Assembly (NCBI GenBank): GCA_041641305.1
Contig: JBEPYN010000001.1
Coordinates: 608,001 to 672,000 of the forward strand
Direction of reading: 5' to 3'
Source: Nitrososphaerota archaeon
GTDB lineage: Archaea > Thermoproteota > Nitrososphaeria_A > Caldarchaeales > Caldarchaeaceae
Length of the DNA: 64,000 nucleotides
Shown: piece after piece, positions 54,419-60,981 of the stretch
Numbering within the stretch: the first letter of the stretch is position 1
Layout: every line of letters starts with the position of its first letter
Translations under genes and position numbers: made by a program
The notes under the pieces: generated by a model
Databases searched by the model: none
The model's input: the letters and a program-made list of their open reading frames with translations, nothing else
Told to the model about the DNA's origin: nothing

Positions 54419-55105
54419 TTAAGTGGACTTGTTTTTGCCGTTGAGGGTTTCTCTTCTGAAGAAGGGGCTGTCCAGCGAGACGTAGCCAACCTGTATGGTT
54501 GGCTCAGGGTTACCTGTTCTCTCCACAACCGATGTAATCAGGTTCAGGGCTTCGCCGAGGCTCATGTCGGGCCTGTACTCGTTCTCCAACATGTCGATGG
54601 CTTTGTCTGAGTTGACTCCAAGGGCGAAGGCGTCGCCGTTGAAGGCTGTTCCGCTTGGATCCACTTGGTAAAGCTGCACTCCGAGCTTGTCGACACCTGC
54701 TATGATGACCGCCACGCCTTGGGGCCTCACAGGGTAGAGGGTGTAGCCGTGGAAGTAGCCGCTCACCGAGTCCACCAAAGTCCCCACATCTACGGCGGCG
54801 TCGAAGAGCAGCCTATGCCGCTGCGCCTCTATACGCATGTGGTCCACTATTCGGTAAAGGTCGCTGATGTATCCCGAACCCGTTACGCCCACATGGTCGT
54901 CGACGACGAAGACTTTGTCGCTTGGCTTCATCAGTTTACGGGTTGGCTTAACCATGCTCGCGAGCACGGCGTAGCGTGGGAACCGTAGTCCGATGCTTAT
55001 CGCACCCCTCATCACAGCCTCGAGAGCCCGGTCGACGAGCGTCATCCGACCCTCGGGGCCATAGAACATCTGGAAACGCGAAGGATCCATCGCCAATTTA
55101 TCCAC
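54419..55105 (-). CDS. psmA: Divergent 20S proteasome alpha subunit
   Basis: P.GR...V..A.EAV..G, K.F..DDH, G...D, RP.GV....AG.D..G..L...DPSG; start may be TTG 55096 or ATG 55090. Confidence 0.85.
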   Translation of the reverse strand: MDKLAMDPSRFQMFYGPEGRMTLVDRALEAVMRGAISIGLRFPRYAVLASMVKPTRKLMKPSDKVFVVDDHVGVTGSGYISDLYRIVDHMRIEAQRHRLLFDAAVDVGTLVDSVSGYFHGYTLYPVRPQGVAVIIAGVDKLGVQLYQVDPSGTAFNGDAFALGVNSDKAIDMLENEYRPDMSLGEALNLITSVVERTGNPEPTIQVGYVSLDSPFFRRETLNGKNKST

Positions 55106-55661
55106 CTCTCACAGGAATTGCTAAAACGTCTACGCCGTTTCCCGAGCCGGGGTCACGCTGCATAGCCGCTTCAACAGCCTTCACCGCAATAGCTCTTGCC
55201 TCCTCCAGCTTAAGGCCTGGTGAATAGAGGCTCTCTAAGACGCCGTAGGCGACTGGGGACCCGGAGCCTGATGAGACAAACTCTTCAGCCACCATGGAGC
55301 CGCTCATGTCGCTGCTGAACACATGCGGGCCCTCGTCGTCTACCCCAGCCACTATCAGCTCCGCGTAGTATGGTATGTAGCTGCGTAGGCCGCTGTAGAA
55401 GAGGTTGGATATCAGCTTGCTTGACTCGGCGACCGACAACGGGTAGCCGCGTCTCAGGGCGATTAGTTTGCGCTCGGCTCTCACTACGTTGACGAGATAC
55501 ACGGCGTCGGATAATAGGCCTGCGACCGCAATAGCCAGGCTGTCGTCGACTTTCATTATTTTCTGCGTGGTTTTCGAAGCGATGAAGAAGCCTTTGCTCG
55601 CTCTTCTGTCGGATGCAAGGACAACTCCGTCAACCGCTTTCAAACCAACTATTGTTGTCAC
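55098..55661 (-). CDS. psmB: 20S proteasome beta subunit without propeptide
   Basis: (M)TTIVG, ASDRRAS, QKI, AG..SD, SGSGS..AYG.LE, RD.GSG. Confidence 0.95.
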   Translation of the reverse strand: MTTIVGLKAVDGVVLASDRRASKGFFIASKTTQKIMKVDDSLAIAVAGLLSDAVYLVNVVRAERKLIALRRGYPLSVAESSKLISNLFYSGLRSYIPYYAELIVAGVDDEGPHVFSSDMSGSMVAEEFVSSGSGSPVAYGVLESLYSPGLKLEEARAIAVKAVEAAMQRDPGSGNGVDVLAIPVRGG

Positions 55662-55727
55662 GTTTCCTCGGAAGATAATGTGTTTGAGAGATGTTTAGCG
55701 ACTATGTTGCCTCGCAGTTGGTCACGG

Positions 55728-56333
55728 CTACGCCGCTATGCTGAATATTCCTGTTGGCAGGGTTTTGAGGTTGGAGAAGTCGTCTATCAAGGCGAGTTCG
55801 TAGGCTTTGTGTAGTATGGCTAGGGCGGCGCGGACGGCGCGGCGCTCGTTTCGGTTGCTCATGATGGTTAGGCGTCCATTTTTTAGGCGGAGGGTTATCT
55901 GCATTTCTCCGTCCTGGGATATCCAGCGGAGAACCTGTGCATCGTTTTCGACGCTGTAGCCGAGCCACCTCATCTCATCGACCCATCTCCCATGCAGGGC
56001 TGTGACACCGGCTAAAACCAGCCCCATATCCTCAACCCTCGTGTCAACAATCACGTAACCGTCTACATGCCCGTGTTCGCCCACCAGCTTCCGCGCCTTA
56101 CGGCTCAGCCTGTATCCCCTATCCCCTCTATCCACAAGCCCATGTTTCTCAAGCCTCCGAAGGATGCGGGAAAGTTTCTCCTGATGCATGCCAAGAGCCC
56201 TACGCATTCCCGCGAAGCTGACCTCGCCATCGGAGGCCGTTGATAAAGCCTTCAAAACAGCCTCCTCATCCTCCCTGAAGTCAAACCCTCCTTCATGAGC
56301 CATATGAACCCTGTCTTTGTTCGAGGCATCCAT
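55728..56333 (-). CDS. Winged-helix (MarR-like) domain protein with unknown C-terminal domain
   Basis: SFAGMRRALGMHQEKLSRILRRLEKHGLV...GYRL. Confidence 0.75.
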   Translation of the reverse strand: MDASNKDRVHMAHEGGFDFREDEEAVLKALSTASDGEVSFAGMRRALGMHQEKLSRILRRLEKHGLVDRGDRGYRLSRKARKLVGEHGHVDGYVIVDTRVEDMGLVLAGVTALHGRWVDEMRWLGYSVENDAQVLRWISQDGEMQITLRLKNGRLTIMSNRNERRAVRAALAILHKAYELALIDDFSNLKTLPTGIFSIAA

Positions 56334-58106: not shown

Positions 58107-59678
58107 CTACTGAAGATATTCGTAGGCGATTGGGGGTGTGAACTCGATGAACTCGGGGGCGAGAACTGTTTTGCGAAGTATCTCGGCTGCCTGCTCAAAC
58201 TTTGTCTCTTGGTAGGCTGGCCCTGTTTCTTCACGGAGTTTCTGCAACACTTTCCCCAATTCCTCCTCGAATACCTGCGGCGTCACCACACGGCCGTCGG
58301 CGAGTCTCGCTCCATGCCGTATCCACTGCCATATCAGGGCCCGTGCTATCTCGAATGTCGCCGCATCCTCCATCAGGAAGTTTATCGCCACGCATCCGTT
58401 TCCGCGGAGCCATGACTCGAGGTAACGTAGCCCGACCTCCATGTTGGCCCTCATCCCCTCCGCGGTCCGCTCTCCTTCGGGGACTTTGAGCAGGTCCTCG
58501 GCTGTGATGATGAGGTTTTCATGCTTTACGTGGAGCTGGTTGGGGGTCTTGAGGTTCTCCACGAATAGGCTCTTCACCAGCGGCACGAGGTCCGGATGCG
58601 CCACCCACGCGCCGTCAAATCCCTGCGAAATCTCCCGCAGCTTATCCTCCCGGACCTTGGCGAAGGCACGTTGCTGAGCCTCGGGATTGCCTCTAATCGG
58701 CACCTGAGCCGCCATGCCTCCGATGGCGTATGCACCGCGTCGGTGACAGGTTTTCACCATAAGCAGCGCCGCTGACTTGAGGAAATGCTTGTCCATGGTT
58801 AGGAGACTTCTGTCGGGCATGAGATAACGTGGGTCATGTCCAAGTCTCTTGATGAAGCTGAAGATGTAGTCCCAGCGGCCGAGGTTCAACGCCGTCACAT
58901 AGTCACGCAGCTCATAGAGGATCTCATCCATCTGGAAAGCCGCGGTAATGGTCTCTATCAAGACGCTGCACTTTATCGTCCCATGTGGAAGGTTGAGGGT
59001 TTTCTCTGCGTCGGCGAAAACGTTTGCCCACCATCTTGCCTCGAGGTAGTGCTCGAGCTTGGGGATGTAGAAGTATGGTCCGGTGCCTCTCCGCCTCAGC
59101 TCAGAAGAGTTGTGGAAAAGGTATAGCCCGAAGTCGAAAAGCGCCGCCGGGACAGGGGACCCGTTTATCCGCATGTTTTTCTCAACAAGGTGGAGACCGC
59201 GGGGCCGCACCACGAGCGTCGCGGTCTTTTCTGCGAGAGTGTAAAGTTTTCCGTCGGGGCTTCTGTATTCGATGGTTTTTCTAACAGCATCCATGAGGTT
59301 GACCTGCCCCGCAAGAGTTTGCTGCCACACAGGCGAAAAAGAGTCCTCGAAATCAGCCATGTAAACATCCGCGCCCGAGTTCAACGCATTAATCATCATC
59401 TTCCTGTCCACAGGACCAGTAATCTCAACATGTCTAACGGAGAGATCGGCCGGAATATCTGAAACACTCCAGCCAGAGGATCTTATGTCAGCCGTCTCCG
59501 GGGGAAAATCAAGCTTGGCGCCCCTCCTAAGCGCTGCGGCTGTCTCCTCCCTTTTAGCAAGCAGTCGCCGTAGCCCGGGGCCATGGTTCTCGACGAGATG
59601 CTGCAGAAAATCAACAGCTTCCTTGTCTAATACGGTGAGAAGTTGTTTGTCAACTTCCTTGATCTGTATTGATGACAG
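58107..59678 (-). CDS. aceB: Malate synthase A; probable CTG start
   Basis: VEITGP, ADFED, VRPRG, PKLE, GRWDY, GGM, MEDAAT.EI; frame open to 59684 with conserved N-terminus but no ATG/GTG/TTG; GGTGA 6 nt before CTG. Confidence 0.95.
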   Translation of the reverse strand: MSSIQIKEVDKQLLTVLDKEAVDFLQHLVENHGPGLRRLLAKREETAAALRRGAKLDFPPETADIRSSGWSVSDIPADLSVRHVEITGPVDRKMMINALNSGADVYMADFEDSFSPVWQQTLAGQVNLMDAVRKTIEYRSPDGKLYTLAEKTATLVVRPRGLHLVEKNMRINGSPVPAALFDFGLYLFHNSSELRRRGTGPYFYIPKLEHYLEARWWANVFADAEKTLNLPHGTIKCSVLIETITAAFQMDEILYELRDYVTALNLGRWDYIFSFIKRLGHDPRYLMPDRSLLTMDKHFLKSAALLMVKTCHRRGAYAIGGMAAQVPIRGNPEAQQRAFAKVREDKLREISQGFDGAWVAHPDLVPLVKSLFVENLKTPNQLHVKHENLIITAEDLLKVPEGERTAEGMRANMEVGLRYLESWLRGNGCVAINFLMEDAATFEIARALIWQWIRHGARLADGRVVTPQVFEEELGKVLQKLREETGPAYQETKFEQAAEILRKTVLAPEFIEFTPPIAYEYLQ

Positions 59679-59691
59679 GCTTATTCACCGT

Positions 59692-60981
59692 TTACTTGAA
59701 CTGGTGGTTCTCGGTTGATTCGGCGAGGGCGGAGACCGCTTCCTTTCCCTCTATAGCCATCAAGACCTCGTCGTAGTAGTGGACGCCGACGAAGCGTTGA
59801 TGCTTGAAGGCTCTGTATCCCGTTTTCTCCAGCTCCGTCTCATGTGCCTGGAAGTTGGCGTAGGCCACCATGCCTTCTTCGGCGAGCTTCTTCGCCAGCT
59901 CATACATCGATGCGTTAAGCGTGTGGAAACCGGCAAGGGTTATGAACTGGAACTTGTAGCCCATCTGGCCGAGCTTTTTGTTGAACTCACGCAGCGTGTC
60001 GCCGTCGACAACCTTTAGCCAGTTGAACGAGGGGGACATGTTGTAGGCGAGGAGTTTGCCGGGATATTTTCGGTGAATTGCGTCAGCGAATTTTTTAGCT
60101 TCTTCTAGAGAGGGCTTCGATGTCTCGAACCACAGCATGTCGGCGTAGGGTGCGTAGGCGAGGCCACGCTGTATAGCCATGTCTAGGGCCGTGCCTGGCT
60201 TGAGCTCGAAGTATCCTTCGCTGGTGCGGCTGCCTGTCAGAAACTCTCTGTCAACTGGGTCTGCGTCGCTTGTGATAAACTGTGCGCCTATCGAGTCGGT
60301 TCTCGCTATAATGATTGATGGAACTCCTAAGACGTCGGCCGCCAGACGCGCTGCCGAGAGAATACTTATGAAGCGTTTGGTGGGGATGAGGACTTTTCCG
60401 CCTAGGTGTCCGCATCTCCTCTCGCTGGGGGACTGGTCCTCGAAATGTACTCCTGCTGCGCCGGCCTCTATCATGGCTTTCATCAGCTCGTAGGCGTGGA
60501 GTGGCCCTCCGAACCCTGCTTCTCCGTCGGCGACTATAGGTGCCATGTAGTCGATTTTGCTGGGCCTGTTTTCGAGATGCTGTATTTGGTCCGCCCTCTG
60601 TAGTGCTTTGACGATTTTTCTGACGAGGTCGGGTGTGCTGCTGGAGGGGTAGAGGCCGAGGTCTGGATACATGTTGCCGCTCTGGTTGTTGTCCGCCGCG
60701 ACCTGCCAGCCGCTGACATAGATGGCTTTGATGCCTGCTTCAACCAGCTGTATGGCTTGGTTGCCTGTCAGAGCTCCGGCGGTGAAGATGTAGTCTGAGG
60801 TGTGCAGCATTTGCCAAAACTTTTCCGACGTGACACGGGCATAGGTGCAGTCGAGTTTCCATGTTCCACGCAGCTTCAACACATCCTCCGCGGAGTATTT
60901 CCGCGTCACACCGCTCCATCGCTGGGTCCTCCAAACCTTCTCCAGCTCCTCAGGTGTATCAGCCATCAGTAACGGGTTCAT
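59692..60981 (-). CDS. aceA: Isocitrate lyase
   Basis: SGWQVA, YPD..LYP, ADGEAGFGG, HFEDQ, RRCGH.GGKVL, ARTD, W.ET, AYN.SPSFNW, QFITLAGFH. Confidence 0.95.
   Translation of the reverse strand: MNPLLMADTPEELEKVWRTQRWSGVTRKYSAEDVLKLRGTWKLDCTYARVTSEKFWQMLHTSDYIFTAGALTGNQAIQLVEAGIKAIYVSGWQVAADNNQSGNMYPDLGLYPSSSTPDLVRKIVKALQRADQIQHLENRPSKIDYMAPIVADGEAGFGGPLHAYELMKAMIEAGAAGVHFEDQSPSERRCGHLGGKVLIPTKRFISILSAARLAADVLGVPSIIIARTDSIGAQFITSDADPVDREFLTGSRTSEGYFELKPGTALDMAIQRGLAYAPYADMLWFETSKPSLEEAKKFADAIHRKYPGKLLAYNMSPSFNWLKVVDGDTLREFNKKLGQMGYKFQFITLAGFHTLNASMYELAKKLAEEGMVAYANFQAHETELEKTGYRAFKHQRFVGVHYYDEVLMAIEGKEAVSALAESTENHQFK

Follow-up and report, generated by a model that had tools for sequence, protein, structure and literature searches.

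The locus analyzed here lies on the minus strand of a 64,000-nucleotide stretch of DNA from a Nitrososphaerota archaeon (the window) and is best read as a second, separately regulated 20S proteasome module that belongs to a proteolysis regulon, a reading to which we assign a probability of roughly 0.55 from sequence comparison. The unit is larger than a pair of proteasome genes and consists of three genes and an inverted-repeat box, in the order wHTH protein, box, beta3 and alpha2. The wHTH protein (55728..56333, minus strand; 201 aa) is a homolog of CSUB_C1146 and the predicted regulator. The box, GTGAC-N18-GTC (55700..55725, minus strand), is located 38 nt 5' of the beta3 start and is the predicted operator for the wHTH protein; a GAGGA ribosome-binding-like site (55665..55669, minus strand) lies immediately 5' of the beta3 GTG. 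beta3 (55098..55661, minus strand) is a third beta paralog of 187 aa that begins with Met-Thr-Thr and lacks a propeptide, with an in-frame stop 12 codons upstream of its GTG and no intervening ATG, GTG or TTG. alpha2 (54419..55096, minus strand) is a divergent 20S alpha paralog of 225 aa when started from TTG 55096 or 223 aa from ATG 55090, and both the alpha2 and beta3 ORFs match PF00227. A preliminary description of this DNA was right that psmB and the alpha gene are co-oriented; it mentioned neither the missing propeptide of beta3 nor the wHTH gene or the box. The 8-nt overlap that it reported between the two genes is unlikely, as it would require initiation at GTG 55105 and relatives favour other starts. 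In six relatives the alpha start sits two or three codons ahead of Asp-Pro or Asp-Gln, which makes TTG 55096 or ATG 55090 the likelier alpha2 start, so the two genes more likely abut (1-nt gap). Further along the window (58107-60981), adjoining minus-strand ORFs resemble, by translation only, isocitrate lyase and malate synthase of the glyoxylate shunt.

The host is a Caldarchaeum, near-identical proteins being named from Ca. Caldarchaeum subterraneum, and its genome (99% complete) contains five proteasome genes, two alpha and three beta. Its housekeeping set has the usual TACK form of one alpha and two betas: the alpha is canonical and its YDR gate intact, one beta is active and has a propeptide, and the other is inactive and carries Ala at position 1. 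The canonical alpha gene is located elsewhere in the genome, between SBDS-like and Rrp4-like genes; alpha2 is thus not the sole psmA of the genome, a possibility that would have counted against its specialization. With PRK03996/TIGR03633, alpha2 scored 162 bits, compared to 294 for the host alpha and a cut-off of 219, and it lacks the YDR motif, Tyr8, Asp9 and Tyr26 of housekeeping archaeal alphas, which agrees with the initial view that it is not the housekeeping subunit. No match was obtained for alpha2 to PF10584. It nevertheless has what defines a 20S alpha, i.e., a PF00227 match (3.7e-36), helix H0 and no catalytic Thr1, and its structure model, although weak over the N-terminal 24 residues (pLDDT <50), contained a helix at 11-26 and gave alpha chains as the best Foldseek matches (TM ~0.7). 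alpha2 is a 20S family member that falls outside the housekeeping alpha group.

The beta3-alpha2 pair was present in 30 of 400 sampled Thermoproteota genomes, namely eight Caldarchaeaceae, 13 of 17 Methanomethylicaceae and nine Nitrososphaerales, with Nitrosotalea devaniterrae, N. okcheonensis and Nitrosocosmicus franklandus among the named carriers. Many ammonia oxidisers of soil and relatives of methanogens are thereby included. Within Caldarchaeales it was confined to a single family (9/54 genomes). beta3 was followed directly by alpha2, with intact frames, in 30/30 genomes, beta3 was present in every alpha2-positive genome, and the three canonical housekeeping genes also occurred in 10/10 distant carriers checked. 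In the tree, alpha2 formed one clade (100/98) and beta3 another (SH-aLRT 100), both on long branches and separate from the canonical clades, and a search of 1.84 billion representatives recovered a compact family, set apart from canonical alphas by a clear gap in score. The paralog count, tree and synteny comparison proposed at the outset returned two alphas and three betas, distinct clades and a pair that is syntenic throughout. AU tests rejected none of three placements of alpha2, next to the canonical alphas of Nitrososphaerales (p 0.47), Caldarchaeales (0.19) or Methanomethylicaceae (0.45), so an old duplication with losses and lateral transfer are both compatible with the data. No relative was found on viral contigs. 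In one Caldarchaeum MAG the alpha2 match was a short terminal piece at a contig end (L024:5556-5717), probably an assembly break, and the N. franklandus genome (G338; L116, L117) holds two more weak proteasome-family matches (E 7e-11 and 2e-4) besides its five subunits.

The box was found before beta3 in 34/34 distinct loci, which are kin, though from three lineages, and in which the surrounding DNA is otherwise unalike; shuffles produced a mean of 0.1 matches and a maximum of 2. Its spacer measured 18 in 32 loci, 17 in one and 19 in one, and its distance to the beta3 start was 29-45 nt in 33/34. The half-sites (TGACY and RGTC) are about two helical turns apart, and the right half adjoins an AT-rich, TATA-like element. 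In the host genome the box before beta3 was the best site and the sole strong one (27.8 bits, compared to 14.3), and no box preceded canonical subunit genes (0/97 upstream regions). Within the window by itself, the box is not above chance (one found, 0.46 expected), and its weight consequently rests on conservation across genomes. A sigma-70 promoter scan gave nothing, the sigma-70 model being unsuited to archaea.

The wHTH protein was modeled (pLDDT 80.6) as a MarR-like winged helix at about residues 20-85 (fold match over residues 7-87, Z ~7.5, rmsd 1.9 over 71 residues) followed by a C-terminal alpha/beta domain of no known family, which matched a COR subdomain moderately (Z 6.9) and gave no usable match in an atlas search. 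It resembles MarR-family regulators in its winged-helix fold match and in a predicted inverted-repeat operator, and differs from them in scoring below the Pfam cut-offs (26.8 bits against 27 for the MarR family), in its extra C-terminal domain and in having half-sites 16 bp apart. Complex prediction of a homodimer was discordant between three runs (0.58, 0.01 and 0.03) and was given no weight. The wHTH gene lies directly upstream of beta3 in 23/30 carriers and elsewhere in the genome in 7/30; in Nitrosotalea the box has remained with beta3 although the wHTH gene has relocated, and in some loci a box also precedes the wHTH gene itself. Altogether, the wHTH family occurs in 52 genomes, i.e., all 30 carriers and 22 genomes without the pair (mostly Bathyarchaeia). 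In Bathyarchaeia the gene is often beside a trypsin-PDZ (HtrA-type) protease, and where the regulator is present and the pair is absent, the box (spacer 19) stands before the HtrA-type protease. It likewise precedes an HtrA gene in two Nitrososphaerales loci and, in two genomes (G299 and G351), HtrA genes on contigs other than that of the regulator. A strict box pattern matched 17/400 genomes, all within the 52 having the wHTH gene, with 11 sites before a trypsin-PDZ protease and four before beta3, while its reversed control matched one genome. As this pattern was composed after the sites had been seen, what is informative is that none of the remaining genomes matched (0/348); loose whole-genome patterns matched mostly in coding DNA.

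From these patterns, it is likely that the wHTH protein binds box DNA. It would contact both half-sites beside the TATA-like element and thereby switch beta3-alpha2, with activation slightly likelier than repression. The module may then be part of a proteolysis stress response in which other lineages use HtrA; stress as the signal is suggested by one observation, that HtrA is the other box target. Further copies of the box mark candidate members of the regulon (L027:2017, L052:10788, L053:3811, L058:8044, L292:3141-7967 and L341). They precede the gene for an FMN reductase, that for a small Cys-rich protein, which shares the orientation of the regulator in Nitrosotalea, and several small genes without known function. 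In Bathyarchaeia, the neighbourhood of the wHTH gene also includes NfeD/SPFH genes and a fusion of an AN1 zinc finger with an M50 peptidase, which add other functions in proteolysis (L283:5651-6457, L290:5858-7164 and L280).

alpha2 and beta3 would form their own alpha7-beta7-beta7-alpha7 particle alongside the housekeeping one. We regard such a dedicated particle as reasonably probable, and the strict coupling of alpha2 to its own beta favours it over mixed rings. The main competing explanation is a subunit swap, whereby alpha2 and beta3, once induced, would join the housekeeping particle in mixed rings or hybrid halves and alter its gating and specificity, much as in the alpha1/alpha2 particles of Haloferax or the immunoproteasome. 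Mixed alpha1/alpha2 particles are known from Haloferax, the canonical subunits are at hand in every carrier checked and beta3 is about 41-42% identical to each of the two host betas, all of which would suit an exchange. However, identity between alpha2 and the host alpha is only about 36%, alpha2 was never found apart from beta3, and both the deletion of Gly128 and the change of Tyr132 to Gln at a ring-contact loop are fixed in the clade, which together leave the swap rather improbable.

Gate residues were assigned in T. acidophilum numbering, with the register verified on chain 8f66_A and on A. fulgidus, and tallied for 108 alpha2 sequences (Caldarchaeum and Nitrososphaerales) and 34 canonical alphas. 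Tyr8, Tyr26 and Gly128 were each 100% conserved in the canonical alphas. In contrast, Tyr8 was found in 0/108 alpha2 sequences, position 26 was Ser or Arg in 98% (Tyr in 2%), the annulus Gly128 was deleted in all 108, residue 132 was Gln in 98% and the Ile12/Thr13 (IT) switch was lost. Arg10, Gly19, Arg20, Val24 and Lys66 were invariant and Pro17 was kept at 97%; the activator pocket (Lys66, Gly19, Arg20 and Val24) is thus fully retained, in agreement with the earlier recognition of a Lys66 equivalent. A new N-terminal motif was conserved (R 100%, Y 100%, G 98%). The alpha N-terminus and annulus loop (YTLYPVRPQG) quoted in the preliminary description proved exact, whereas the canonical loop used for comparison (YTQYGG) reads YTQHAG in the canonical alpha of the host. 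Its statement that Pro17 alone had survived from the gating cluster holds in that Tyr8, Asp9 and Tyr26 are replaced and Pro17 is kept, but overlooks the Arg of YDR, also kept in 108/108. The alpha2 of Methanomethylicaceae (n=13) is intermediate, with Tyr26 present, no deletion at 128 and a partly eroded YDR, and the gate was therefore remodelled stepwise after the module arose.

Without the network of YDR, IT switch and Tyr26, and with one annulus glycine fewer, the gate may admit unfolded or damaged protein with less need for an ATPase. This would suit the host, as no PAN was found in its 99% complete genome and its Cdc48 tails are non-canonical. The tails read AYIG and MMIG rather than canonical HbYX (G000 C1:566772-568994 and C2:219270-221450), in contrast to the statement that one canonical tail is present in all archaea (PMC3493965). 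In T. acidophilum, basal activity rose 2- to 6-fold with changes at I12 or T13, and L81Y opened the gate in part (PMC10349882, PMC10349142). alpha2 naturally resembles the T20S mutants (L81Y, I12T/A/F and T13A/I) in having Tyr81 (108/108) and lacking Ile12 and Thr13. Those mutants are single engineered changes on an intact YDR, whereas alpha2 also lacks Tyr8, Asp9 and Tyr26, and the net gating effect is consequently not transferable. All eight canonical Nitrososphaerales alphas likewise have Tyr at the Leu81 position (L119, L095, L096, L099 and related), which weakens Tyr81 as a unique mark of an open gate; alone, it is no such mark. Moreover, Tyr8 and Tyr26 serve the open state and their loss might equally hinder opening, and the invariant Lys66, Gly19, Arg20 and Val24 fit ongoing use of the activator pocket, which counts against an ATPase-independent gate, although Lys66 stabilises the open state even without an activator (PMC12352868). 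Given the canonical Tyr81 and the open-state role of Tyr8 and Tyr26, an alpha2 gate looser than the canonical one is something we infer at close to, and slightly below, even odds.

The same residues permit the opposite proposal, a dedicated particle with a tighter gate that would yield only to one particular activator or substrate tail, for which the wHTH protein or one of the Cdc48 paralogs might be a candidate. The invariant pocket and the conserved new N-terminal motif would fit such a private opener, as would the wHTH proteins of three Nitrosotalea, which end in an HbYX-like Leu-Tyr-Asn (L051:8013-8759, L052:9652-10392 and L053:4164-4901). This tail was not seen in the other lineages, where the wHTH C-terminus is unconserved; the wHTH family also occurs without the pair and no conserved ATPase or activator gene lies near the cassette, making a private opener distinctly unlikely.

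Equivalents of Thr1, Asp17, Lys33, Ser129, Asp166 and Ser169 were intact in 13/13 beta3 sequences and invariant in the alignment, and beta3 thus carries the residues of a catalytic 20S beta. It lacks the Gly-Thr site of propeptide autolysis: at every locus the start codon directly precedes Thr1, and the sequence upstream is unconserved or contains stops. Removal of Met before Thr is an established specificity of methionine aminopeptidase, and such removal would expose Thr1 and render beta3 active, no autolysis step being needed. A propeptide-less start is also typical of HslV, and beta3 might conceivably form a double ring of beta subunits alone or a small complex, in the manner of HslV, BPH or Connectase, with alpha2 in a side role. 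Proteasome homologs with other architectures do exist (PMC7980362). Nonetheless, beta3, which is 57-98% identical between lineages, reached 212 bits with the archaeal beta model, compared to about 20 with HslV (cut-offs 137-158), its partner gene is an alpha that appears from its model to retain helix H0 and the alpha fold, and a Met-Thr-Thr start also occurs in one ordinary active beta (family f12), so that an assembly other than a 20S barrel is very improbable. The fullest form of the second-module reading, a complete proteasome that would dispense both with propeptide processing and with an ATPase to open its gate and would be switched together with HtrA through the wHTH protein and box, is put forward tentatively.

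Purifying selection acts on the pair, which represents an old clade of paralogs. Within-family dN/dS was 0.05-0.15 for alpha2, 0.025-0.11 for beta3 and 0.04-0.055 for the canonical alpha, with dS close to saturation in distant pairs; the relaxed selection considered beforehand is not seen, all values being far below 1. Patchy distribution and the somewhat lesser constraint on alpha2 than on the canonical alpha might evoke a decaying duplicate without function, an explanation that these ratios, the intact frames in 30/30, the invariant active site and the conserved box leave with next to no probability. The suggested connection to the ubiquitin system of Caldarchaeum is not supported, as the distributions of E2 and the pair do not track: E2 was detected in 54/54 Caldarchaeales, which served as the positive control for the search, 45 of them lacking the pair, and no E2 match was found in five pair carriers outside Caldarchaeales (Nitrososphaerales and Methanomethylicaceae; 92-99% complete).

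The general view is that archaea possess a single 20S core and diversify it through ATPases or mixed paralogs. With the archaeal 20S (T. acidophilum, A. fulgidus and the TACK form of one alpha and two betas) the pair shares its folds, Thr1/Asp17/Lys33, the Pro17 turn and the Lys66 pocket. It differs in being additional to a full housekeeping set, in the absent propeptide, in having its own regulator and box and, in Caldarchaeum and Nitrososphaerales, in an alpha2 without the YDR Tyr and Asp, IT switch, Tyr26 and Gly128. Haloferax volcanii also has a second alpha paralog, differently expressed, but its alpha1 and alpha2 share a single beta, whereas the alpha2 described here is paired, in one operon, with a beta of its own and belongs to a clade spanning three classes, in a tree where haloarchaeal sequences were not placed. 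In eukaryotes, the immunoproteasome and control through Rpn4/PACE or Nrf1, and in actinobacteria PafBC, work in a similar way, with alternative subunits governed by a dedicated transcription factor and its DNA element. The likeness is one of working and no homology is claimed; in the archaeal module the replacement extends to alpha as well as beta, and the predicted factor is a winged-helix protein of archaea. In databases the module genes are annotated as proteasome subunits or hypothetical proteins. A literature search, which covered subscription journals only in small part, yielded no paper that describes the pair, its regulator or the box, and papers on Caldarchaeum do not describe them either.

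A second core that is self-contained and whose gate has been rewired in nature would put the gating model based on YDR, IT switch and HbYX directly to the test, with a natural series running from near-canonical (Methanomethylicaceae) to fully remodelled (Caldarchaeum and Nitrososphaerales). The box and regulator likewise offer a testable route to archaeal control of proteasome and HtrA genes. If correct, this reading describes a proteolysis regulon of archaea to which an inducible, alternative 20S particle belongs, including in widespread soil ammonia oxidisers; two of the carriers, Nitrosotalea devaniterrae and Nitrosocosmicus franklandus, are in culture. Altered gates were also seen in recent, independent duplicates of canonical alphas (YDM and YDY for YDR), one in a genome of the Nitrosopumilaceae group (L220, G067) and the other in a Bathyarchaeia genome (L307, G299), where about 5 kb separate the duplicate from the wHTH gene.
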